From Malacoraja senta (Eukaryota), in assembly GCA_038087875.1 (NCBI GenBank), contig CM075982.1:52142001-52206000 (forward strand): 64,000 bases of DNA. Reading direction: 5' to 3'. The position numbers and the translations under genes are program-made. The notes under the pieces were generated by a model. The model did no database searches. It saw nothing but the letters and a program-made list of their open reading frames with translations, and was not told the DNA's origin. Below, piece by piece: positions 32,340 to 46,997 of the stretch. The stretch's first letter is position 1. The number at the start of each line of letters is the position of its first letter.

Positions 32340-33090
32340 AATGTAGGGAGTTAGGCAGAACATTAAAAAGCAGGACCCCAAGGGTAGTAATCTCTGGATC
32401 ACTCCTGGTGCCACGTGCTGGTGAAGGTAGAAATAGGAAGATAGGACAGATGAATGCATGAAAGTGACAACACAAGAAAAGAGTGATAAAAGACCCAGGC
32501 TTGCTTTCATAGGTCGGGGCATTGACTATAAGAGTCTGGAAGTCATGATACAGCTTTATAGGCTGCATTTGGAATATTGTATGGGTTGCCCCATTACTAG
32601 AAGGATGTGGAGGCATTGGATAGGGTTCAGAGGAGATTTACCATAATGATGACTGGATTAGGGGATATTAATTACAGGGAGAGTTTGGACAGACTTGAAT
32701 TGTTTTCTCTGGAATGCTGGAGGCTGCAGGGACACCTGATTGAAGTATATCAAATTCTGAGAAGCATTGATAGGGCCAAAATCTTTTTCCCAGGATGGAA
32801 AAATCAAATACTGGAGGACATAGCTTTAAGGTAAGAGGGGCAATGCTTAAAGGATATGCGGGCAATTTTTGGTACAGAGGGTGGTGAGTGCTTGGAAAGT
32901 GTTGCCAGGAATGGTGCTTAAAGCAAATACATTAGTGGTATTTGAAATACTTTTGGATATGGATATGGATATGGATATGAGTTATGTGCAAGTGGGTAAG
33001 TGATGGTTTTGGCATTGTGTTCGGCACAGACATTGTGGGCCGAAGGGCCTGTTCTTGTGCAGTACTGTTCTAAGTTCTATGTTCTAAATG
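32340..33090 (+). mobile_element. Degenerate CR1 (ORF1 piece joined to ORF2 3' end and tail)
   Basis: LAFIGRGIDYKSLEVMIQLY, QRRFT; tail gggccgaagggcctgtt..ttctaagttctatgttctaa. Confidence 0.8.
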
Positions 33091-33170
33091 AGTTGCAGTC
33101 TGTTTTATTTGTCCCTGGTTAAATTCCAAAATATGTCCACATCCAACAAAAGTATCTGTTAATAGATAAT
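32965..33170 (+). repeat. Left copy of 206-bp host duplication flanking the LTR element
   Basis: Matches 42805-43010 with 2 substitutions. Confidence 0.95.
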
Positions 33171-34502
33171 TGTAAGGGTTTTCTGCGTCGAGCTTTCGCC
33201 CGACCTAAGGTCCCTGTGCCTTGCTCTGGTCCCTTGACCAGGCCGCGCACACTGGTTCCCCGTGAGTGGCTCGACCCACTCACCCCCTACGGTTCTAGAC
33301 ACTGGACTTAGTTGCAGGAGCGTTGATAGTGCAGAAAATTCAACCAGACCAGATTTGAAGACCAGGGTTTAAACAGGAAAACAACTTTTATTTAGCGGTT
33401 GGAACTACGGTACATGAATACTTTGACACAGTTCTATAAGGCATATGCATAATAACAGTTCCTGTTTCGGGATCATAGACGCAATAACTACGATACAATA
33501 CTCGAGTGCGGGATGGGGAACGTACGGCACATCGTAAAATTTGCCAGCACATCTTACACTTACACCCACGTTAATATAACCCCCTCCCCCTCCCCTCTAC
33601 ACTAAACTATGTCCAGGATGTGCAGGATCGGGGTACATGCTCACCATGGGGCGATTACTGAGGTTACTGGCTGGTCGTGCTGCTTCCTCCGATTAGGTGG
33701 CTGTGGAAGGGTCGTCGGCGGTCGTCTCGGTCTTTCGGGTGGTCCCGGGGGTTCCTTTTATTTTTTTCCTTTTCTTTCCACGTGGCGGGGACTCCAGCCG
33801 GAGTGTGTGTCACACTAGACACCGTGTACTTTTAAGCACTGTCCTGTGTCCTCTCTCTCTCTCCGCAAGTCTCCAGATTCGTTCAGTGACTCCTTCTGTG
33901 TCTCCCTCCTTTCCTTTTTAAACCCCAAAATCGTGGCCAGTTATTCTAATCCTGACCCGTCCTATCTCCCGCCAGATCTCAGGATCTCTTTGCTTAAAAG
34001 ATGGGTTTCGAGCTCTCTCTTTGTTCTGCGTTATGTCCGGGAGTACTGGTGATGGCTAGACGGTCTGTTAATTTGTTTCTCAATAAGAGGTGATGGGTTT
34101 AACTGGTTTTCCCATCACCGGCCAGGTAGGTTTCTATGGGCTATTGTGCTCCCTTAACGAGATTAACTATGTAGGTCAGCTTGGGGCATTGTGAATGCCT
34201 GCTGATGTCAGCGCCCCAGTGTCTGGACTTCGACCTGGTTTCGGGGGTGTCTGCACGGCCAATATCCATCTATTGTTCAGGCCGTGACTTTGCAGAAACC
34301 CAGAGACTGGGCTGTGGGGTTTCGCTTTTGTGGCTGGTCACGAGGTCCCGCGGCCATCTTGGGACCCACTGATTGTGACATCCCTTGTTAAAATGACCGC
34401 AGCTTTTCTCTCTCTCAGTCCCAGTCCCGTATAAAAATGTCCAAAATGCAGCTCTTTGGTTTTGTTGATTGTAGCATGAGGGAAAACTTCTCAAATCTTA
34501 CA
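33171..34502 (-). repeat. 3' LTR (1332 bp, complete)
   Basis: TGTAAG...CTTACA inverted termini; preceded on minus strand by purine tract; 33171-33969 repeats at 41982-42804. Confidence 0.92.
33387..33392 (-). promoter_or_regulatory. Candidate LTR polyadenylation signal AATAAA
   Basis: tttatt on plus strand, conserved in both LTRs, ~215 bp from LTR end. Confidence 0.6.
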
Positions 34503-34512
34503 GTCCCTCCTG
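34503..34512 (-). other. Polypurine tract
   Basis: Minus strand CAGGAGGGAC immediately before TGTAAGA of 3' LTR. Confidence 0.75.
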
Positions 34513-35012
34513 TTGATTTGCATAACCCCAGCTTATCGAATCAATTAAATAATGTGGTTGAGCAATGTTTTCCCGATTCCCCACATCCAGACCCCTGAGG
34601 TTTTAACTAACTAGTGCCCCATTACGAACATACAGTCCCCATCTTTTAGGCTGACCTATACTGTCCGTGTCCCGGGCAAAACTATATTACAAACATTTGC
34701 ATTTTGTGTCTACCTATACACTTACACCTTGCCCCAGGCCGATGCCTCCGCCATCCTCCTGCTGGTGTAAGCTTTAATGTAGGACATGAAAACAAAACCA
34801 CTGCAAAACGATACATTTTCGTGCATTCTTTCAAAACAATCACTTTTTTCCACCATTTCGAAAAGGACAATACAAAACACAGTTGACTCGGTCTGGAGGG
34901 GGCCCGTCCTCCTAGCAGCTTGCGGCTGGGTCCTGCTCGCCCACCCGCACGTAACGGTCTCTCCATTCTCCTTTATTTACCCGGTCATTGAGGCGCTGCC
35001 CTCCTTTACATT

Positions 35013-35734
35013 TCACACATAGTAAATATCTACTGCCAGCGGAACTGTGGGAGGGGTTGTGCGTGGTCGTGTGATGAGTTCAGTGGCGTTTGCCGGGATC
35101 GGGGAAAGGGGGACCCCACAAGCCTGCGAGCTAACATCCCACCTCATCCCCTTACCGTCATCCTGCCACTGTTTGTGGAAAAATATGCTGTTGCCCATGG
35201 AGCAGCGATACCTCGAACCCCACATACACATATAGATCCCCTCATCCGGTTCCCACCATTTGTCCCAACATACACTCAACTGTTCATTAGTCCCAGAAAT
35301 AGTTCTGTGAGTGTTGTTGTTAAGTCTCTCCCACTCAACAGTGGAGTTGGCCATTGTCCGACTTGTTTTCCTCAGCCACCACCGCCTGCTCGCGGGGACC
35401 TTCCCCGTGCATACCAGGCAGATCCTTTTGCCCACGGTGGCGCTTATTCTTTGGGCGACGATCTTGACTCTCGGGCACAATAATGCAGTGTCCCGATAAG
35501 CAAAGCCTGAGGCGCTGGAATATTCTGAAGAGTTCGATCCCAGCCACCCCGGCCCCGGCCTTCATGAAAGTGAACTGCAGTCTCCTCCGCTTCTCTCCTT
35601 CCAGTCCCATCGGTCGCGATGGGAGCCGTGTCCCCGGAGCAGCCGTAGACGATGATGTCCTTGGTGCAGCCCCGATAGGCCCACCCACATCCGATCGCCG
35701 TGGCGACGATCCACCATACGAGTGCCTCCTTCCG
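35013..35734 (-). pseudogene. Env-position accessory gene: signal peptide + Ig-superfamily domain(s) + Thr/Pro stalk (disrupted)
   Basis: RKEALVWWIVATAIGCGWA hydrophobic leader; Ig pattern VGKRICLVC..WW..LSVCW..DEGIYMC; sequons NSS, NST, NNT, NAT; one frameshift near 35620 and a TGA at 35562-35564. Confidence 0.6.
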
Positions 35735-36617
35735 CTCCAGAAAACAGATAAAATATGGTATAGCCAGCCTCTTGGGGAGCGCTTGACTTTGTTAAATGCC
35801 CCTGCGGGCGGGTCTCTTGACCCTCAGCCCACCCCACACCTGCATCCTGGACGCATCAACTTTGTCTAAAACTATTCCCCCAAACTTATCTATATTACTT
35901 ATCCTTATCCTTATCTACACTATAATACAACGCCGCCTTCCCAGGGCGGCTCAGCTAATCCCTGTCAAGGCTGCAGCGGGTCGTCTCCTGCGGCTGCACC
36001 ACACTGTCTCCCACCTTTGACCCTCCGCAGCCTGTCGCTGCCTGTCGGGGGCTAAACCTCCTCTGAAACGCTAAACTCCCGTACCTCGGGGCGTGATTGA
36101 CCTCTGGCCAAAACTTTCTAGGTTGGGGTTCCCTATTAGACCTACGGAGAGTCACCTTAGGCACTGCCCCCTGGACAGCCTGGCTGAGGACCGGTTCCTG
36201 CCGTGTCACAGCTCGGGTATCCCCCGCAGCTGCCGACCCTGGCCCCTCCTCATCCAGCTCTGCCCCCCCCGGTGCTGGGTATTCTCGCGGCATCCGGCCT
36301 CACCCTGCCTGTACCTACAGGTGGTGAGCCTCCGCCCGCTACCCCCGCCTTCCTGGTGCTTGAGTCGAGAACGTTACTGTCGTCCCCCTCCGACTCCTCC
36401 TCCTCCGTAATGGGGTCCAGCCCCTGGTCGAGCTGATCAGGCTCTTCCTCGTCTGAATCCCACCCAAAACGCGAGACTCTCCATTCCTGGAGAATGTCCC
36501 CCCCTGTCACGCAGGCAACCTTGCTGTCTGCGTGACCTGCCTCACCCTTGGCTGTGAGTCCCCACTCACAGGGCTGGCCCCTGTGGTTGACCCCTGTGCT
36601 CCAGGCTTATATGATTT

Positions 36618-37658
36618 TCACTGGTTAATGTGAAACCATTTAACCCGCCGGGGCAACTTCACGGTGTAGACCATGGGGCTGGCTTTATCTACAATGCTGT
36701 AGGGCCCCATGTAGAGTGGTTCGAAACTACCTACCCTAGCATAGTTCTGAACCATTACTAATTCTCCTACCTCCCAATCCTGCAGCTTGTGCGGCTCCAG
36801 CAACAGCTTGTTGCCCAGGTGCTGCCTTCCCATGTTCCCAGCCATCTGCCCGTGGACCTGCTTCAGACGCTCGAAGAGATTCTGGACAAACCTGTCCCTC
36901 TTAACCTCCTCGAGCTGACCCTCCGTGAGCACCGGGGCCAGAACATGGGTGGGAGTGCGCATAACCCCGCCAGTCATCAGCTCGTACGGGGAATACCCCG
37001 TGCTCTTTGACTGGCTGGCCCTGATCCCCATGAGGACTAGGGGCAGGACCTCCGCCCATTTTTGGGGCGAGCCCATGGCCTCCTTCCTCAACCTTTCTTT
37101 CAGGGTCCTATTCATGCGCTCCACAATCCCTGATGACTGAGGATTGTGGGCTACGTGCCACTTCCCCTCAATGCCCAGGAGCATGAGGGTGTTCTGCATC
37201 ACCTGTCCGGTGAAATGACTCCCTTGGTCGGACTCCACAAACCGAGGGAGCCCCCACCGCGAGAACACCTCCCGGACCAGGATCTTGGCAGTACCCAGTG
37301 CCGTAGCTGTCTTACAGGGGAAAGCCTCCACCCACTTAGAGAACACATCTATCAGGACGAGGCAGTACTTATAGCCTCCTTGGGTGGTGGGCAAGGGCCC
37401 GATGTAGTCGATTTGGATCGACTGCCAAGGTCCCTCCACCCTCCTGACGTGTCCCATGGGCGCTTTCCTTTTCTGGGGGTCTGGGTTATCGGCAGCACAG
37501 ACGAGGCAGCTGGCGCAGAACTCGCGGACATCGTCCCTAAGCCCCGGCCACCATCCCGCCTGCTCTATCCGCTGCCACGTAACCTCCGGTCCGACCCTCA
37601 TGTGCCAGCTGGAGGAACTCCCTCCTGTGCTGCTGTGGCACAACCCACTGTTCGGCAT
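36618..37658 (-). pseudogene. pol: Integrase
   Basis: Zn-finger remnant H..H..CLVC, QIDYIGPLP, SDQGSHF, GIVERMNRTLK (DDE), GPY motif; frameshifted relative to RT-RNase H. Confidence 0.92.
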
Positions 37659-39751
37659 GGAAGAGCATGCCTTCTTTTACCGAGAGGGCCGCCTTACTGT
37701 AGAGACCCTCTACCTGCTCACCCTCACTAACCGCTCTGAGGATGGCTTTTAAAACAGGATCCTGAGCTTGGACGGTCCTCAGGTCCAGAGGCAATGTGAC
37801 CTTTGGGGTCCCGACGTTTCCCTCCCTATCCTGGATCGCTGCTATCTGCCTGGGCCCATAGGGGTCCCAGAAAATGCCACTGCGGGCGCCCTCCTTAGCC
37901 AGGGCGTCCGCCTGTTGGTTGCCCTCCCCCCGGGGCTCTGTGGCGGAATGGGCCTTCACCTTGTGAATGAAGACCTCCCCTCTCTCCCCTACTGCGGCCA
38001 AGATCTGCTCTAGCAGGGCCTTAACTGTTAAAAGCCTTCCGTCCGAGGAAGTGTATCCGCAACGGGACCAGATGGCCAGGTACTCGGTACACCAGTTGCA
38101 GGTGAACATGCTGTCCGAGCAGATCGTGTACGGGGTTGGGAACATCTCTGGGTGGGTAACGACGTATGCCACTGCGGACAGCTCGGCCTGCTGCGCGCTC
38201 ATGGTGCTGGGGAGCTTAATCGCCAAGGCAATGCCTGCCTCGGGGTCATAAACTCCACACCCCGTGAGTCGTTCGCCAGCTGACACCATGCTGGAGCCGT
38301 CCACATAGATCTCCCGGCCTGTGGGATGGATCCCAGCCCGTAAACCTATGTCGACGTCCCAAACCCCCTCCACGGAACACCGATGGGCCGTTCCGGGATA
38401 TACCAAATTGGCCGCGAGCTTGGGCTCGCACAGGCCCTCAACCTTCAGATCCATCTGTGAAAGGAGGAGGGTCCAGCGCACGATGCGGGCGCTGCTGACA
38501 GTCCCATCTTTGATCCTTCCATCCAAAAGCATCTGGGTGGGTGTGTGGTGGGTGAGGAGAGTGATGGGAGAGGTCCCTGTGAAGATTAATGACCTCTTCA
38601 CTGCCCAATATGTGGCTAAAAGGTGCCTCTCGCAATTGGAGAAACTCCTCTCCACATCGGTGAGCACCCTGGAGGAGTACACCACTGGTCGCAGCCTGCC
38701 GTGCAGCTCCTGCAGCAGCACGGCACGCAGGCTGTCCCCACTGGCTGCCACCTCCAGAAAAAAACCTTTCTCTCTATCTATGGCTCCTAAGGCTGGTGCG
38801 GTTTGCAGATCCCCTTTTAACTTCTCGAACGCGGCCTGGCAACCCTCATCCCAAGACCACTCCACTCCCTTGTGTAGGAGTCGGAGTAGTGTGGCTGCGA
38901 TGGCCGCGTAGTCCTCGATGAAGTCCCTGCAATACCCGGTCAATCCCAGGAAAGACCTCACACCCCTTACTGTGCAGGGAATTGGCAACTCCCGTACTGA
39001 CTCCCTCCTAGCCTTATCTATGGCCCTTTCCCCAGCGAGGATGGTCAGACCCAAGAATTTTACTTCTGGCAGACCGATCCGTGCCTTTTTCGGGTTTACC
39101 TTAAAACCCTTCCTAGCCAGCAGCTCTAGCAGCTCGGCCAGCAGTGGACCGTGCTCCTCCTTCGTGTCTGTCAACAGGAGGAGGTCGTCCACATACTGCA
39201 CGATCTGGTGGCGCTGGCTAAATTCCCTCAGGCTATCCGCCATACACTGGTGAAAAATGCTGGGGCTGTTGTGGAAACCCTGTGGCAAGCAGCTCCATGT
39301 GTACTGTTGCCCTTTAAAGGTAAAGGCAAACTTGTACTGGTCCTTCCGCCGCAGCGGAATGGACCAAAACCCATTTGAAATATCCAGCACCGTGAACGTG
39401 GTCGCGGACGCTGGGATACTCCCTATGAGGTCGGCAGCTGCTGCCACCGTGGGTGCGCATGCGGGGATGTTACTGTTGAGGACCACCGCGGTAGTCCACT
39501 GTGGCCTTCCATGAGTTATCCGGTTTCCTAACCGGCCACAATGGAGAGTTCATGTGTGTGGCTATCGGCCTCAGCACGCCCTGCTGCACCAATGAAGACA
39601 TGGCTATCTCCAAATCGGGTTCCGCCTCCTTGGGGAAATTGTACTGCCTCTGGGGTCTGGTCATGGGGTCCCCGTCTACGCTAACCTCGAAACCGACTAC
39701 CCTACCACAATCGTGTCTGTGGGTTGCAAACGCGTTCAGGTTGTTCCCCAC
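37600..39751 (-). pseudogene. pol: Reverse transcriptase + degenerate RNase H tether + second RNase H
   Basis: NSPLWPVRKPDNSWKATVDYR, LDISNGFWSIPL, LPQGFHNSP, YVDDLLL; tether LEVAAS/ERHLLA/LTHH; active RNase H YVDGSS, SAQQAEL, CSDS, KVKAHS, GNQQADALAK. Confidence 0.95.
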
Positions 39752-40262
39752 ACTCTTGCAGTTTGGCCGGGACCTCCGCCACCATGCGCTCGAGGTCGTA
39801 ACCCTCGGGCGGTTTTATGGTGCACAGAGTCCCTTTCCGCTCTTCTCCCCTAATCACCATCATCTCACCCTTACTGCCCTTGTCCACCCAAAGGCAGTGG
39901 TTCCGTAAGTCCATGAGGATCCCATGGCTTACCAAAAAATCGGATCCAATGATCCCCTTCCCACCCCCTGCTGTCCACTTCATCAGGATACACTCCCATG
40001 TGGTGCGGAGTGCTCCCAAATGAATGGACAGCGGGATGGAATGCGCGCCAGCCTGTTCTCTCCCTGTGAACCCCACCAGTGCGAAAGTGGCCCCCGTGGA
40101 CAGGGGAGTGTCAAAGGGTTCCTCTGTGTGGACCACGGTGCATGAAGCCCCCGTGTCCACCAGGTAACTGCCCCTTTGCCTCCCCACTACCATCACCACA
40201 AGCGGCCTCTTCCACACATCGTAGTGGAGCGGACACAGATAGGCGGGCTGCGCGGGCTGATG
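39702..40262 (-). pseudogene. pro: Retroviral-type aspartic protease
   Basis: YLVDTGASCTVV and GIIGSDFL motifs; in frame with gag after a single TGA. Confidence 0.9.
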
Positions 40263-41977
40263 TCATTGGGGAATGTCCAGTGCCCCCCCCCCCGCACCCG
40301 GGGAGCCGGTAGCGACTGCCACCTTCCCCTGTGCGGCCATGAGGGACCGCATCACCTCGATCATCGATTCGATAATCTCGGGCTTAACTGGGACATCGGC
40401 GCGCAGGGTGGCGCCAACCCTATCTTCCTTGGTGTGGGCCCTGCAATCCTTCCGCCAGTGCCCCACCTTACCGCACCTGAAACACTTGGACTGTGCGGTA
40501 GGGTTACCCTCCTGTCGCCACTCCTTTTGGGCCGGTGCAGTAGCCTCCGCCACGTGCACCTTCCCTTTTACGAGTCGGGTAGACGTGCTCCAGCTGTTTC
40601 TATACCCTACGGTGAGACGGTCCAAAACCGCCTCCTCCGTGCTATTTGTGGGATCAAACCAGGCTTTCGCCTGCTCCCTGACGGCCACCAGGCTGTTTGA
40701 CACCAAACATCGGAGCCACTGGGCTCTCCCATTCCCGACCAGGTCATCCCGCGCGGGGACGTGCGGGCAGCTGCTCTGATACACTGGCCACAGTCGCGCC
40801 GCAAAAACCTTTGGGGGTTCTCCCTCTATCTTCCCCAATCGGGCAAATGGACCCTCATCGTCCATCCCCAAAACTTCCAGGACCTCGTCCCGTAGGAGAT
40901 CGTAGGTCCTGGTCCCTCTTTTACTCTCATCTGAGAGGCATTGGAGGATTGAGTTGTCCAGGGAGAACAGCAACATTTTTGCCCGTTCTTCCCCGTCGCA
41001 ACCGTTGATTGCGGCGGTTTGCTCGACCTCCCTAAAATGCAGCAAAGGGTCCCCTGATTCGGACAATTTCTTTACATGCCCGATCATGGGCCTTAACTGC
41101 TGGGAGTTGTGGGGCACCACGATCTCACTTTGAATGGGTCCGGCGTCCCCATTCAGCGCGGTGGGTCCCCGTCTGGTTTCCAGGACTGGGCACATGGGCG
41201 CCGGTGCCGAGTCCTCGACCGGGAGCTCCCCCGCCTCTCTCTCCCCTACACTACCCCTTTCCCAGGATGCCTCGTAGCTAGGGGGATCGTGGAGTCTGGG
41301 GGCCGAAGCCACCACGGTCTTTCTGAGGGCTGGAACCGGGACCTTCGCAACCGCTAGCTTTATTTAAAGCACCGCAGACCCTCTATCTCCTGCAGGCAGG
41401 CCCCGTGGTCGGCCTCTTCCGACCTGTCCTCCAAAGCCATTTTGTAGGCTGCCCTAACTCCCTTGAGGTTCTCTGCCTGGGCCTCCAACTGGCGGCTCAG
41501 GGAAGCACACTGCTCCCTGAGCTTGCCCTCACTGAGCATGGCCTCAGTGATCTGGCACTCCATCAGCTCTACCCTGGCCTCGTGGCGGTTGGTCACGGCC
41601 CGGCGCTCCTTGTTTAAGGAGTCCAGAGCCTCAATCAACCGGTGCCCACCCGCAGCCTTCTCCTCTACCTCCTCAAGAAGGTCGCTGATCAGGGCTGCCT
41701 GCGCCACAATCACGCGGTCCAAGAGCCGGACCTGTTTTTTGTAACATGTCAGCCAGACCGCCTTCTCCACAGATTTCTTATGGGCTTTGCTGGCCGTCCA
41801 CCGGATCGCTGCATCCAGTGGGCGCTTGTCCTCCAATAAATCACAAATCCACTGTTTGGTAATATTGACCTTGCTAAAAACATAGTCCGCAATGCGCTCG
41901 TCCATTACGTTCCTAGTCTTCAACTCCTTTTCTGGCACCCTATCGTCCTGCTGCCAGCGTCCCTTCGTGGTTGCCAT
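40263..41977 (-). pseudogene. gag: Gag (coiled-coil N-terminus, PPxY, capsid-like region, CCHC knuckle); one frameshift near 41350
   Basis: Heptad-rich 41360-41750 region, DPPSYE, GEPPKVFAARL (MHR-like), CFRCGKVGHWRKDC. Confidence 0.85.
41960..41976 (-). other. Primer binding site, tRNA-Arg(UCG)
   Basis: Minus TGGCAACCACGAAGGGA, 5 nt after LTR end, complementary to the vertebrate tRNA-Arg-TCG 3' end TCCCTTCGTGGTTG-CCA (recalled sequence). Confidence 0.8.
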
Positions 41978-41981
41978 AATC

Positions 41982-42804
41982 TGTAAGGGTTTTCTGCGTC
42001 GAGCTTTCGCCCGACCTAAGGTCCCTGTGCCTTGCTCTGCCCCTCGACCAGGCCGCGCACACTGGTTCCCCGTGAGTGGCTCGACCCACTCACCCCCTGC
42101 GGTTCTAGACACTGGACTTAGTTGCAGGAGCGTTGATAGTGTCGAAAATTCAACCAGACCAGATTTGAAGACCAGGGTTTAAACAGGAAAAAAACTTTTA
42201 TTTATCGGTTGGGACTACGGTACATGAATACTTTGACACAGTTCTACAAGGCATATGCATAATTACAGTTCCTGTTTCGGGATCATACACGCAATAACTA
42301 CGATACAATACTCGAGTGCGGGATGGAGAACGTACGGCACATCGTAAAATTTGCCAGCACTTCTTACACTTACACCCACGTTAATATAACCCCTCCCCCT
42401 CCCCTCTACACTAAACTATGTCCAGGATGTGCAGGATCGGGGTACATGCTCACCATGGGGCGATTACTGAGGTTACTGGCTGGTCGTGCTGCTTCCTCCG
42501 ATTAGGTGGCTGTGGAAGGGTCGGCGGCGATCGTCTCGGTCTTTCGGGTGGTCCCGGGGGTTCACCTCGCCCAGGGGTCCTACTGCTTTCCTTTAATTTT
42601 TTCCTTTTCTTTCCACGTGGCGGGGACTCCAGCCGGAGTGTGTGTCACACTAGACACCGTGTACTTTTAAGCGCTGTCCTGTGTCCTCTCTCTCTCTCCG
42701 CAAGTCTCCAGATTCATTCAGTGACTCCTTCTGTGTCTCCCTCCTTTCCTTTTTAAACCCAAAAATCGTGGCCAGTTATTCTAATCCTGACCCGTCCTAT
42801 CTCC
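41982..42804 (-). repeat. 5' LTR, truncated (lacks outer ~530 bp of U3)
   Basis: Aligns to 33171-33969 with about 20 differences and one ~25-bp indel, then switches abruptly to duplicated host sequence. Confidence 0.92.
42448..42456 (-). promoter_or_regulatory. Candidate ATG + splice donor in LTR (ATG|GTGAGC)
   Basis: Minus strand gccccATGgtgagc, conserved in both LTRs (ATG also at 33645-33647). Confidence 0.55.
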
Positions 42805-43010
42805 ATGGATATGGATATGAGTTATGTGCAAGTGGGTAAGTGATGGTCTTGGCATTGTGTTCGGCACAGACATTGTGGGCCGAAGGGCCTGTTCTTGTGC
42901 AGTACTGTTCTAAGTTCTATGTTCTAAATGAGTTGCTGTCTGTTTTATTTGTCCCTGGTTAAATTCCAAAATATGTCCACATCCAACAAAAGTATCTGTT
43001 AATAGATAAT
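42805..43010 (+). repeat. Right copy of 206-bp host duplication
   Basis: Matches 32965-33170. Confidence 0.95.
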
Positions 43011-43916
43011 AGATACAGCATGATTATTTTGTATGGATGTATTTTGGGGTATGTGAACAAAGCAAGTTAATATATTTGTAACATAACGAGAATAAGTATG
43101 ATTGAATAAAATTGTAATCTGATAATAGTGAATAGCGTTCTTTGGTGTTGCAGATCTTAGATCTTTTACTAAATTAAGCAGATAAACTGGAGCTGAACTT
43201 TCAGTGTATAAATGCTATTGGGGAACAATGTACCTACTGTAACTGTGTTCAAGGAATCTTTATGCTTATGAATGCTTAAACATCACCAAATTATGAAAAC
43301 ATGTATTCGGAAACTACTGGCCATCTTCACCTTCAGTATTAGACAGATAGCTCCACTGAAGTCAATGCAATAGGATAAGGTTTGGGATGGATAATGGCCT
43401 GTTAATTGGCTATTGCCTGTTTTACCACCCAACCAAAGTCAAGAACTACCTTTGTGATTTTTGCAATTTCATAGATAATGAAGCAAAAAAGCCGGCCATC
43501 ACATTACTTGAGATGATTTCCAAGATAGCAGGGGAAAAGATGTAAATTCACATTCACCGCGCTGCAAGCTTTTGTGGCTTCCGTAAGAAAACATCACAAG
43601 GAACTTTTTCCTGCCCTCCAAGTTTGCAGAGGAATTGAACATGGAAGTCTATCATAGAAACTCGAACACAGGGTTTATTTGCAGCAGAATTTAGGATGAC
43701 AGTGAAAGGATTTCATGAGTACCTCCAAAGAGTGCCTCCAAGGAGTAGCACAGTTCATAGATACATATGATAGAAGTAATGGTAAAGGAAACGTTAAACT
43801 ATTAATGGGAAAGTTGTAGCAAAGTTTTGGAAATAGCAATGTTGTTCAATCTCTTTGCAATGAATGGAAAATTGCCAACACATTTGGGATTTCATTGATT
43901 TGGGCACAATAGAGGT

Positions 43917-46900
43917 GTGAAGTATGGATTATTCTGTGCTCATTTAGAGACCATATCTTTCTTGAGAGCACAGAGAACTCATTCAGGGATTTGTCCACTG
44001 GGAGCGCTTCCAGTACTCACCAGGAGGTCGCCTTCACCGACCTCCACGTCGATGCTGCCGCCGACCTTCACCTGCCTACCGATGACGCCCAGGCTCGCCG
44101 CTTCTACGGTAACTCGGACTTCCTTCCCCTCGCCGATTCCTCGCCGCCCCCCGGGACCTCCCAGCATCGCCGCCGGACCGGGCCCATCCAGCATCGCCGC
44201 CGGACCGGGCCCACTCTACACGGCCGCCGGACCGGGGATCCACGAACTTGGCCGCCGCACCGCACCCTATTCACCCCGTCGCCTCACCGGACTGGTCGAA
44301 CCGCGCCGCCCCACCGACCATCCGCCTACCGGGACCTCCCACGCATCGCCCGTGGACCCCGACTCTACTGCCCACCTACCCCGACCATCGGGTCCGCCGA
44401 CCCTCGCCACTGCAACGCCCTCCAGCCCCACCGACCCCGACTACACTGCCCACGGACCCCGACCGTCGGGTCCGCTGACCCTCGCCACTGCACCTCCCTC
44501 CAGCAGCCCGCAGCCGTCGCCTTACCTGCAAACTGGACTCTGTACTGGGCCTGAAGCCTCCACGCTGTTCACTCCCACTCTCCTGGGTTTGACTCCACTG
44601 TGTCCTAGCGCTAGTCTGCCTAGCCCTGGTTATCTCAGTGGCAGTTCCACTGATTCTTCCCCATCCCTCTCCAACTATGGGACCACTTCTCTTCCACACC
44701 CACACCACTGCCCTCTCACCCCCCCACCCCCTGACCACCCACCACCCCCCCACCACACATCGCCTCGTCCCCATTACACCCACCTGCCTTCCTCCGGCCC
44801 CAACCCCCATCCCTGCCGGGTGTTCACCATCCCCCCCGACCTCCCCCTCTCCGACATCGAACGGTCTGTCCTCAGCAGAGGTCTTACCTTTGTCCCCCTC
44901 CGTCCCCATCTCAATGAGTTCCGTGCCCTCCATGACTTGGAACGCTTCTACCGTCGCCTCCGCCTCACAGCTCACTTCCATGGGAAGCAGTCCTCGCTCC
45001 CCACTGATGACCCCTTTTCCCGTCTCCAACGCACCCCATCCTCATGGAACCCCCTTCGCAGCCTTCCGGCTTTAGAACTCTTTATTAAAAACTGCCGCCG
45101 TGACATCAACCGCCTCAACTTCTCCACTCCCCTGTCTCACTCCAATCTCTCCCCCCTTGAACGCACTGCCATCGACTCACTCCGCAACAACCTAGATTGG
45201 GTTATCAAACCCGCCGACAAGGGAGGTGCCGTGGTAGTCTGGCGCGTCGACCTCTACAAAGCTGAGGCCACGCGCCAACTCTCGGACACCTCTTCCTACT
45301 TACCCCTGGACCATGACCCCACTGACGAGCACCAGGCCTCCAGCACCATCACCAACTTCATCCACTCCCACGCCCTGCCCGAACGAGCCTCCAACCTCAT
45401 CGTTCCCCAGCCCCGCACAGCCCGCTTTTACCTTCTCCCCAAAATCCACAAACCAGACTGTCCCGGTAGACCCATTGTCTCTGCCTGTTCTTGCCCCACC
45501 GAACTCATCTCCACCTACCTCGACTCCATACTATCCCCCTTGGTTAAATCCCTCCCCACCTATGTTCAAGACACCTCAGACACTCTCCATCATCTCCGCG
45601 CATTCCACTCTCTAGGCCCTCACCCCCTCATCTTCACCATGGACGTCCAGTCACTGTACACCTCCATCCCCCACCAGGATGGTCTCAAAGCCCTCCGTTT
45701 TTTCCTCGACCGTAGAAGCAATCTATACCCGGCCACTGACACCCTCCTCCGCCTAGCGGAGCTGGTACTTACACTTAATAACTTTTCATTTGACTCCTCC
45801 CATTTCCTCCAAATACAAGGCGTAGCTATGGGCACACGCATGGGCCCCAGCTACGCCTGCCTCTTTGTCGGGTACGTAGAACAATCCCTGTTCAATGCGT
45901 ACCAGGGCCCCATCCCCGACCTCTACCTCCGCTACATCGATGATTGTTTTGGTGCCACATCCTGCACCCACACACAACTGACTGACTTCATCCGCTTCAC
46001 CACCAACTTCCATCCGGCACTCAAATACACCTGGACCATTTCCGACACTTCCCTACCATTCCTTGACCTCACTATCTCCATCGCAGGTGATAGACTCCTT
46101 ACCGACATCCACTACAAACCTACCGACTCCCATGGCTATCTGGACTACACTTCTTCCCACCCTGCTTCCTGTAAGGACTCCATCCCCCACTCCCAATTCC
46201 TCCGTCTACGCCGCATCTGCTCCCAGGATGAGGCGTTCCACACCAGGGCATCTGAAATGTCCTCATTCTTCAGGGAACGGGGGTTCCCCTCCTCCACCAT
46301 AGATGAGGCTCGCACCAGGGTCTCTGCCATACCCCGCAACACTGCTCTCTCTCCCCATCCCCCCACTCACAACAAAGGCAGAGTCCCCCTAGTCCTCACC
46401 TTTCACCCCACCAGCCGTCACATACAACAAGTGATCCTCCGTCAGTTTCGCCACCTCCAACGTGACCCCACCACTCGCCACATCTTCCCATCTCCCCCTA
46501 TGTCTGCCTTCCGCAAAGACCGCTCCCTCCGTAACTCCCTTGTCAATTCTTCCCTTCCCTCCCATACCACCCCCTCCCCTGGTACTTTCCCTTGCAACCG
46601 CAAGAGATGCAACACTTGTCCCTTCACTTCCCCCCTCCACTCCATTCCAGGACCCAAGCAGTCGTTCCAGGTGCGACAGAGGTTCACCTGCATCTCCTCC
46701 AACCTCATTTATTGCATTCGCTGCTCTAGATGCCAGCTGATCTACATCGGTGAGACCAAGCGGAGGCTTGGCGATCGTTTCGCCGAACACCTCCGGTCGG
46801 TCCGCAATAACCAACCTGAACTCCCGGTGGCTCAGCACTTCAACTCCCCCTCCCATTCCGTATCTGACCTCTCTGTCCTGGGTCTCCTCCATGGCCACAG

Positions 46901-46997
46901 CGAGCAACACCGTAAATTGGAGGAAATGCACCTCATATTCCGCTTGGGCAGTCTACATCCTGGTGGCCTGAACGTTGAATTCTCCCAATTCTGCTAG
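43917..46997 (+). CDS. Penelope-like (Neptune-type) RT + GIY-YIG endonuclease, uninterrupted ORF; true 5' start uncertain (first ATG 44052)
   Basis: IKPADKGGAVVV, LPKIHK..GRPIVS, MDVQSLYTSIP, GVAMGTRMGP, YLRYIDD, CNRKRCNTC linker, NLIYCIRC..YIGETKR..RFAEH. Confidence 0.93.
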   Translation: MKYGLFCAHLETISFLRAQRTHSGICPLGALPVLTRRSPSPTSTSMLPPTFTCLPMTPRLAASTVTRTSFPSPIPRRPPGPPSIAAGPGPSSIAAGPGPLYTAAGPGIHELGRRTAPYSPRRLTGLVEPRRPTDHPPTGTSHASPVDPDSTAHLPRPSGPPTLATATPSSPTDPDYTAHGPRPSGPLTLATAPPSSSPQPSPYLQTGLCTGPEASTLFTPTLLGLTPLCPSASLPSPGYLSGSSTDSSPSLSNYGTTSLPHPHHCPLTPPPPDHPPPPHHTSPRPHYTHLPSSGPNPHPCRVFTIPPDLPLSDIERSVLSRGLTFVPLRPHLNEFRALHDLERFYRRLRLTAHFHGKQSSLPTDDPFSRLQRTPSSWNPLRSLPALELFIKNCRRDINRLNFSTPLSHSNLSPLERTAIDSLRNNLDWVIKPADKGGAVVVWRVDLYKAEATRQLSDTSSYLPLDHDPTDEHQASSTITNFIHSHALPERASNLIVPQPRTARFYLLPKIHKPDCPGRPIVSACSCPTELISTYLDSILSPLVKSLPTYVQDTSDTLHHLRAFHSLGPHPLIFTMDVQSLYTSIPHQDGLKALRFFLDRRSNLYPATDTLLRLAELVLTLNNFSFDSSHFLQIQGVAMGTRMGPSYACLFVGYVEQSLFNAYQGPIPDLYLRYIDDCFGATSCTHTQLTDFIRFTTNFHPALKYTWTISDTSLPFLDLTISIAGDRLLTDIHYKPTDSHGYLDYTSSHPASCKDSIPHSQFLRLRRICSQDEAFHTRASEMSSFFRERGFPSSTIDEARTRVSAIPRNTALSPHPPTHNKGRVPLVLTFHPTSRHIQQVILRQFRHLQRDPTTRHIFPSPPMSAFRKDRSLRNSLVNSSLPSHTTPSPGTFPCNRKRCNTCPFTSPLHSIPGPKQSFQVRQRFTCISSNLIYCIRCSRCQLIYIGETKRRLGDRFAEHLRSVRNNQPELPVAQHFNSPSHSVSDLSVLGLLHGHSEQHRKLEEMHLIFRLGSLHPGGLNVEFSQFC

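Follow-up and report, generated by a model that had tools for sequence, protein, structure and literature searches.

How can a retroviral envelope gene be translated when the exon that opens its signal peptide holds no start codon? The question is raised by a defective endogenous retrovirus (ERV) of the snakehead retrovirus (SnRV)-like clade, which lies on the minus strand of a 64,000-nucleotide stretch of the genome of the skate Malacoraja senta (NCBI GenBank assembly GCA_038087875.1, contig CM075982.1, positions 52,142,001 to 52,206,000). This whole stretch is referred to as the window, and all positions are counted from its first letter. The env gene of the provirus begins with a signal-peptide-like stretch devoid of methionine, and its long terminal repeats (LTRs) carry an ATG that is followed immediately by a splice donor-like motif. 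The best explanation, which we hold to be reasonably probable, is that the env start codon comes from a one-codon exon inside the LTR and is supplied through a spliced subgenomic RNA.

The env frame and its missing methionine

The open frame concerned had initially been annotated as an Ig gene, a designation that was not borne out. Judged by its sequence, the frame is the 5' third of a retroviral env and not a free-standing Ig gene. The HMMER search for relatives of the env protein returned 11 hits, and a skate relative, P0002, continues with a furin-like site (RHRR), a stretch resembling a fusion peptide, a heptad repeat and, before the tail, a hydrophobic membrane anchor. Residues 2-52, 51-224 and 479-516 of P0002 match the window, the last of these corresponding to positions 35028-34915, and residues 225-478 are without counterpart. 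An internal deletion at about 35030 has removed the fusion part and most of the membrane region of env and has joined the tail to the 5' part. The features of a class I fusion protein, from signal peptide through to tail, are present as read from P0002, the window copy comprising the 5' part and the tail only. Because of a frame break near 35550 and of this large deletion, the window copy is unable to make a full envelope; contigs of other sequencing runs differ from the window at both places.

As the initial annotation had claimed, a T-rich tract begins at 35755 and ends in AG 35736-35735, and the two acceptors named for it, whose exons would begin at 35734 or 35728, both keep phase 0 with the signal-peptide frame. 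The pyrimidine tract ranks first among the 642 AGs of the element interior (41980-34503), and the previous AG lies 34 nt back.

The N-termini of env copies were compared without gaps, anchored on a conserved Tyr-Gly-Cys-Ser motif. Offset -28 is occupied by Lys in all three skate copies that show the region (the window, P0001 and P0006), their signal peptides are without Met, and P0006 also has no Met in the 13 codons further upstream. The fourth skate copy, P0002, is uninformative, its first residue being a private Met within the signal peptide. Four distant relatives could be compared in frame: P0004 has Met at -28 after Leu-Leu-Phe-Ser-Gln, in register with 35731-35729, P0003 has Met at -26, and P0005 and P0012, which are patched or partial predictions, have Met only at other offsets. 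A further relative called in another frame, P0007, has codons compatible with the layout of P0004. Since distant relatives carry Met and the skate family Lys, an in-exon start was probably lost after an LTR exon had taken over. In the RefSeq model P0001, env homology starts at the codon right after AG 35736-35735 and the preceding 48 residues are unmatched in the element, which suggests that this model uses an acceptor at 35734.

Two further observations concern the surroundings of the tract. The DNA immediately upstream of it resembles that of the distant relative P0007. An argument from the triplet before AG 35736-35735, supposed to differ in other copies, was weakened by P0006, which keeps the same residue.

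The statement that the signal-peptide frame (35791-35444) is without ATG is correct, but an ATG at 35845, in the same frame and one stop away, had gone unmentioned. Env might start at this codon of its own, the stop at 35794-35792 being private to the window copy and a long basic N-terminal extension preceding the hydrophobic core. The codon has A at -3 and follows AG 35847, whose full acceptor score of 4.4 is accompanied by a poor tract (-8.2 versus +6.6); P0006 stays in frame across a one-codon length difference in the T-rich tract, a tract that is nevertheless better explained as an acceptor. Furthermore, the Met of P0004 sits at the head of the signal peptide and not 37 codons upstream. 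A start at 35845 therefore appears improbable to us.

A proposed start codon and splice donor within the LTR

The LTR signals described initially are all in place. ATG 42456-42454 is followed by GTGAGC, the same 14-mer recurs in the 3' LTR (ATG 33647-33645), TTTAAAA is found at 42757 and 33922, and AATAAA at 42202 and 33392. Splice sites were scored with rough vertebrate weight matrices, and not with MaxEnt. Such scoring had been proposed as a check, and by it donor 42453 ranks second among the 89 GTs in 42730-41300. Among LTR donors scoring at least 4, it is the only one that has an open phase-0 ATG. Since gag's first ATG runs into the primer binding site, there is no room for a donor ahead of gag except in the LTR. 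Equal-scoring donors arose in 1283 of 2000 dinucleotide shuffles of 42730-41982, and the pattern of donor and acceptor exceeds usual chance, though not overwhelmingly. In a diverged LTR contig of run X1, a 63-nt patch (42397-42459) is kept that covers ATG and donor and ends before TATATTAA; the contig is without 163 nt upstream and 257 nt downstream of the patch, an indel could set its edge, and its letters were not displayed.

According to the proposed mechanism, the transcript would start within the 5' LTR, in any case upstream of 42456 and probably past TTTAAAA 42757, and the first exon would end with the ATG at donor 42453. The intron would take out the rest of the LTR including the poly(A) signal, together with gag and pol, and the same splice would clear seven later ATGs, gag's first included. 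Joined to the acceptor at 35734 or in phase at 35728, the LTR ATG would open the env signal peptide. By analogy with foamy viruses, the 5' poly(A) signal may moreover be silenced through binding of U1 at the donor. The ancestor may have had the acceptor and its own Met, which an LTR exon ending in ATG would have made redundant and which the skate family would then have lost. As regards the one-codon LTR exon put forward in the initial annotation, tract rank, phase, the Met-less skate copies, the homology edge of P0001 and the precedent of SnRV argue for it, and no RNA junction was recovered among 9 reads.

A different upstream exon has to be considered as well. In avian leukosis viruses, the gag ATG and the first gag codons are spliced to env, and a donor inside gag might do the same here. 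Donors 41869 (5.1), 41731 (4.2) and 41668 (4.8) are in phase 0 with the gag ATGs 41977 and 41905, but they score at least 3 bits below 42453; of the two ATGs, 41977 shows A at -3 with G at +4, but 12-103 polar residues would precede the signal peptide. The first exon would moreover retain the poly(A) signal and as many as eight upstream ATGs, and we judge this arrangement to have a slim chance of being correct. An acceptor at the LTR end (41980), joining the LTR ATG to gag in frame, was dropped with a score of 1.8.

Several points weigh against a start codon spliced from the LTR. Four of 12 listed sequencing runs were mapped on 33972-42804, one of them (X12, about 6% of the run read) a confirmed RNA run, and the donor-acceptor joint is present in none of its 9 RNA reads over 8.8 kb, a sample with almost no power; likewise, none of the 15 contig joints listed matches donor to acceptor. 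Owing to G at -3, the full score of the acceptor is only 3.1, under the 12 best of the 106 AGs in 36620-35600, and the alternative in-phase AG (first exon base 35728) scores 0.0. Among the 2000 shuffles, a donor of equal score stood directly after an ATG in 73 and had any open phase-0 ATG in 385. The LTR ATG has C at -3 and is preceded by an earlier ATG at 42717. The transcription start is inferred rather than mapped, and so is the placement of the donor in R; P0001 and similar gene models may have been predicted ab initio. Finally, donor 42093 slightly outscores 42453 and brings no ATG, and TATATTAA at 42388, behind G-boxes, constitutes a rival promoter downstream of the ATG.

These last two signals take on a role of their own if the env start of the skate family was lost in a founder copy, which spread without translated envelope, or if translation has a non-AUG start. 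The ATG|GT of the LTR would then be due to chance or untranscribed, with TATATTAA at 42388 as promoter, and 42093 (8.6, without open ATG) would be the working donor for poly(A) control. Codons that fit acceptor-plus-Met in P0004 and P0007 differ in all three skate copies, and the remaining AG has G at -3, but the tract is still the best of 642, which drift would erode, and ATG|GT is exactly in phase. Every env copy seen is broken or a patched gene model; long open env frames are nevertheless kept in P0001 and P0002, and the patch of the diverged LTR spans ATG and donor and stops before TATATTAA, for which an indel in the G-run could also account. A dead or non-AUG start is in our view unlikely, and the LTR-derived ATG is retained as the preferred explanation.

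The 3' LTR has a second AATAAA (33762), 160 nt past TTTAAAA, at a place where the 5' LTR differs (about 42597). If this signal is used, R would be short and the donor would lie within U5.

The provirus, its relatives and its surroundings

Coordinates of the features discussed are collected in the table.

Table. Features of the provirus and its flanks (positions in the window; strand given as - for minus and. where it does not apply).
Feature	Position	Strand	Basis or remark
Host flank, 206 bp, one of two copies	42805..43010	.	2/206 mismatches vs 32965-33170
TTTAAAA, TATA-like candidate; would put ATG and donor in the transcript	42751..42757	-	sequence
Proposed env start ATG, one-codon coding exon	42454..42456	-	sequence
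Donor-like GTGAGC, upstream of poly(A) signal	42448..42453	-	score 8.2, rank 2/89
G-runs then TATATTAA; possible intronic G-run enhancer or rival promoter leaving the ATG untranscribed	42381..42410	-	both roles putative
AATAAA, poly(A) signal candidate	42197..42202	-	sequence
Second donor-like GGG|GTGAGT, downstream of AATAAA, unreached by any open ATG	42088..42093	-	score 8.6
5' LTR remnant, first ~530 bp of the full LTR missing	41982..42804	-	783/802 identical (97.6%) to 33969-33171
Primer binding site	41959..41976	-	overlaps first gag ATG (41977); zero leader outside LTR
gag: coiled-coil-like N-terminal part and single zinc knuckle	40263..41977	-	zf-CCHC 2e-6; broken near 41355
pro-pol: protease, reverse transcriptase, tether-like RNase H, RNase H, integrase	36618..40262	-	several breaks; in frame past gag stop
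Upstream env-frame ATG, separated from signal peptide by single stop 35794-35792	35843..35845	-	sequence
T-rich tract with its acceptor AG (G at -3) and, in phase, another AG at 35730-35729	35735..35755	-	tract rank 1/642
Signal-peptide-like stretch without Met	35678..35734	-	hydropathy averaged over 9 residues, 1.7-2.1 at 35728-35710
env 5' part with weakly Ig-like domain	35031..35677	-	91-94% to skate proteins P0001/P0002; frame break near 35550
env cytoplasmic tail	34912..35028	-	P0002 residues 479-516 match 35028-34915
Polypurine tract	34503..34514	-	sequence
Complete 3' LTR, 1332 bp, TG...CA, with ATG|GT at 33647/33644	33171..34502	-	sequence
Host flank, other copy of duplication	32965..33170	.	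self-comparison of window

The order of the element, LTR-gag-pro-pol (tether, RNase H, integrase)-env-LTR, is that of SnRV-like ERVs. The gag frame ends at 40263 and the protease frame starts at 40262, which places pol in frame after the gag stop. The coiled coil of Gag was called from sequence and weak Pfam hits only, and the length of gag near 41355 varies among contigs of runs X1 and X8. LTR ends are marked by loose ends of contigs at 34502 and 41981. The primer binding site (41976-41959) is one that we take to match tRNA-Arg; the window contains no tRNA genes, and no Rfam matches were found in 33000-43100. The gag ATG 41977 overlaps this site, and between TTTAAAA and gag there are 8 ATGs that open short frames. 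The combination of a 206-bp flank duplication, a truncated 5' LTR and an intact 3' end is unlike an ordinary short target duplication, and the duplicated flank looks like the result of a one-ended integration completed by host repair.

The reverse transcriptase (RT) of the window is 40% identical to that of SnRV over 244 residues, and the integrase 31%. SnRV is represented by L001 (10,688 nt), a single record from a motif scan of viral contigs, whose RT is the one printed for SnRV. A quick RT tree (the window, SnRV and all 47 RT hits; midpoint root, without bootstrap and without Loki, foamy or gypsy rows) places the window within a set of 24 rows that comprises SnRV and elements of coelacanth, frog and turtle, with a Shimodaira-Hasegawa-like approximate likelihood ratio test (SH-aLRT) value of 96. 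SnRV-like ERVs have been reported in elephant shark (PMC4422223; PMC4977317; here and below, published work is cited from the portions consulted). The nearest named relatives are gene models of the skate Rhinoraja longicauda (91-94% identity). An initial word-based protein search gave 0 of 17 candidates, related DNA was confirmed neither in metagenome contigs nor, for env, in viral contigs.

Lokiretroviruses share several traits with the element, namely a dual RNase H, a coiled-coil open reading frame before the capsid, and an env with furin site and fusion-glycoprotein-like features (PMC7947760). An identity as lokiretrovirus was dropped, however: in a comparison by eye with the RTs in the supplement of the same paper, the window motif LPQGF matches SnRV, as opposed to CPFGY, LPFGY or MPFGY in Loki RTs (PMC7947760). 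The env of Loki-Xtr is unlike that of the window in having its own Met and a short N-terminus, and the lokiretrovirus survey, in the portion consulted, screened six cartilaginous fish genomes without a positive mark (PMC7947760).

The Ig-like call for the N-terminal part of env is weak but repeated. Atlas gives 0.93 for Ig features, with recognition below the Atlas threshold. Pfam Ig_3 appears in relatives, all under the cut-off (P0012, E 0.0027; P0004, E 0.0085; another, 0.58), the window piece itself has no Ig match in Pfam, and the SnRV env N-terminus yields V-set at E 0.079, again below cut-off. For the fusion part of P0002, Atlas indicates a resemblance to F-type envelope proteins at 0.90-0.91, a score that is uncalibrated for protein parts; this part has no Pfam match and no match in the PDB by sequence search. 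Folds predicted without alignment input were unusable (mean predicted local distance difference test, pLDDT, 32.7 for P0002 and 38.9 for the Ig-like piece). In the env of the shark and skate lineage (35677-35031), and perhaps in that of SnRV (L001 6185-6484), a putative Ig-like domain precedes an F-type-like fusion module, the profile hits all lying below cut-off. In the sawshark gene models P0003 and P0008, env pieces of this lineage are fused to zinc-finger and Niban-like host exons; these may be artefacts or real chimeras.

Read depth in runs X6 and X8 is several times higher in LTR bins than in most internal bins, as expected with many solo LTRs, depth not being equal to copy number. The X12 reads over env (34562-35446) are first-mate-on-minus and maybe derive from antisense RNA; with 9 reads in total they are too few to judge.

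Other open frames occur in and around the provirus. The gap of about 800 bp between integrase and env (36606-35794) holds frames at 36250-36606 and 35955-36299 with zero Pfam hits, which could be accessory genes as in SnRV. Adjoining the provirus, a frame of 1032 codons on the plus strand (43899-46997) has RT-like and GIY-YIG-like motifs and is presumably Penelope-like. LINE-like RT frames abound in the remainder of the window. The presence of two RNase H domains is, to our knowledge, common to all retroviruses.

Upstream env start codons and the meaning of the proposed LTR exon

The closest parallel is offered by SnRV. In L001, the leader ATG 180 and 13 hydrophobic codons run up to the top-scoring donor (221), which is of phase 2, as is the top-scoring acceptor (6184), and the env frame is free of Met for about 90 codons, until 6407. 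As predicted from these signals, SnRV would resemble the window element in that the env exon lacks an ATG and receives its start from an exon further upstream. The 1996 description of SnRV by Hart reportedly placed the env start upstream of the common donor. Both elements have a weakly Ig-like env N-terminus, and they share a single zinc knuckle, a coiled-coil-like Gag and pol in frame past the gag stop (PMC2717909); in the portion consulted, PMC12193657 mentions only complex splicing for SnRV. The ATG and 13 signal-peptide codons of SnRV lie in the leader after the primer binding site, outside the LTR, whereas in the window element the upstream exon, situated in the LTR, would contribute nothing but the ATG, and the env exon itself encodes the signal peptide. 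R-U5 measures about 83 nt in SnRV versus several hundred in the window element. Similarity between the two env proteins is not significant, with a short Cys-containing match in 3 of 5 queries (best E 0.038) and 0.7% by hhalign.

Insect ERVs of the springer, ZAM, Beagle and idefix subclades also splice the main env exon to an upstream exon that supplies the start, which is provided as an AU dinucleotide, by gag, or by a short exon that encodes a peptide and lies upstream of gag (PMC12992720). They differ in being derived from Ty3/gypsy, without common descent, and the portion consulted does not put the donor in the LTR (PMC12992720). In foamy virus, as the initial annotation had stated for spumaviruses, the major splice donor lies in R and in both LTRs precedes the poly(A) signal, and U1 binding silences the 5' poly(A) site; the R exon is not described there, in the portion consulted, as a supplier of a start codon (PMC3694450). 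Foamy RT is more distant from the window than the best retroviral RT chains (E 1e-40 versus 1e-57).

Two further systems show that an LTR can provide an AUG. In HTLV-1, the type 1 human T-cell leukemia virus, splicing links an LTR exon that carries an AUG, in frame, with the viral gene HBZ (SP1), as tested by mutation; this transcript differs in being antisense, in coming from the 3' LTR and in encoding a regulatory protein rather than env (PMC1459196). The LTRs of mouse ERVL/MaLR (MT) combine promoter, AUG and splice donor, and solo MT LTRs provide first exons and start codons to host genes of the mouse (PMC5538554), although family and host are others. It is therefore already known that env can start in an upstream exon (SnRV, insect ERVs), that an LTR AUG can be spliced to a viral gene (HBZ) and that solo LTRs can donate an AUG (MT). 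What is new here is probably the one-codon, in-LTR form of the upstream env start. The literature within our scope, outside which lay most subscription papers, repeat databases and bioRxiv supplements, yielded no account of the skate element or of a vertebrate retrovirus whose env ATG is supplied by the LTR; in the portions consulted, nothing on the supply of the env ATG was added by PMC9040795, PMC12440569, PMC12789967, PMC11952523, PMC10435555 or bioRxiv 2023.10.26.564294.

A wider picture can be drawn, which we offer as speculation and consider rather doubtful as a whole. In the skate SnRV-like lineage, the env start may have moved to a one-codon LTR exon, so that a single splicing event gives env its start and at once excises the 5' poly(A) signal. 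The abundant solo LTRs would then be portable cassettes of promoter, ATG and donor for host genes of cartilaginous fish, independent of the mouse MT LTRs, and the envelope would pair an Ig-like domain with an F-type fusion module.

Since the principle is known, the gain would fall mainly to ERV specialists. If the LTR exon does supply the env start, it would explain the false predicted N-termini of P0001, P0002 and P0006, and why envelopes of this kind are easily missed. It would also outline how the start codon of a retrovirus shifts stepwise from one exon to another, with relatives that have acceptor and Met, SnRV with ATG and signal peptide in the leader, and the window family with a lone ATG in the LTR as its stages. 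For cartilaginous fish, in which ERV expression has been little studied, it would provide a candidate LTR family for the donation of first exons.

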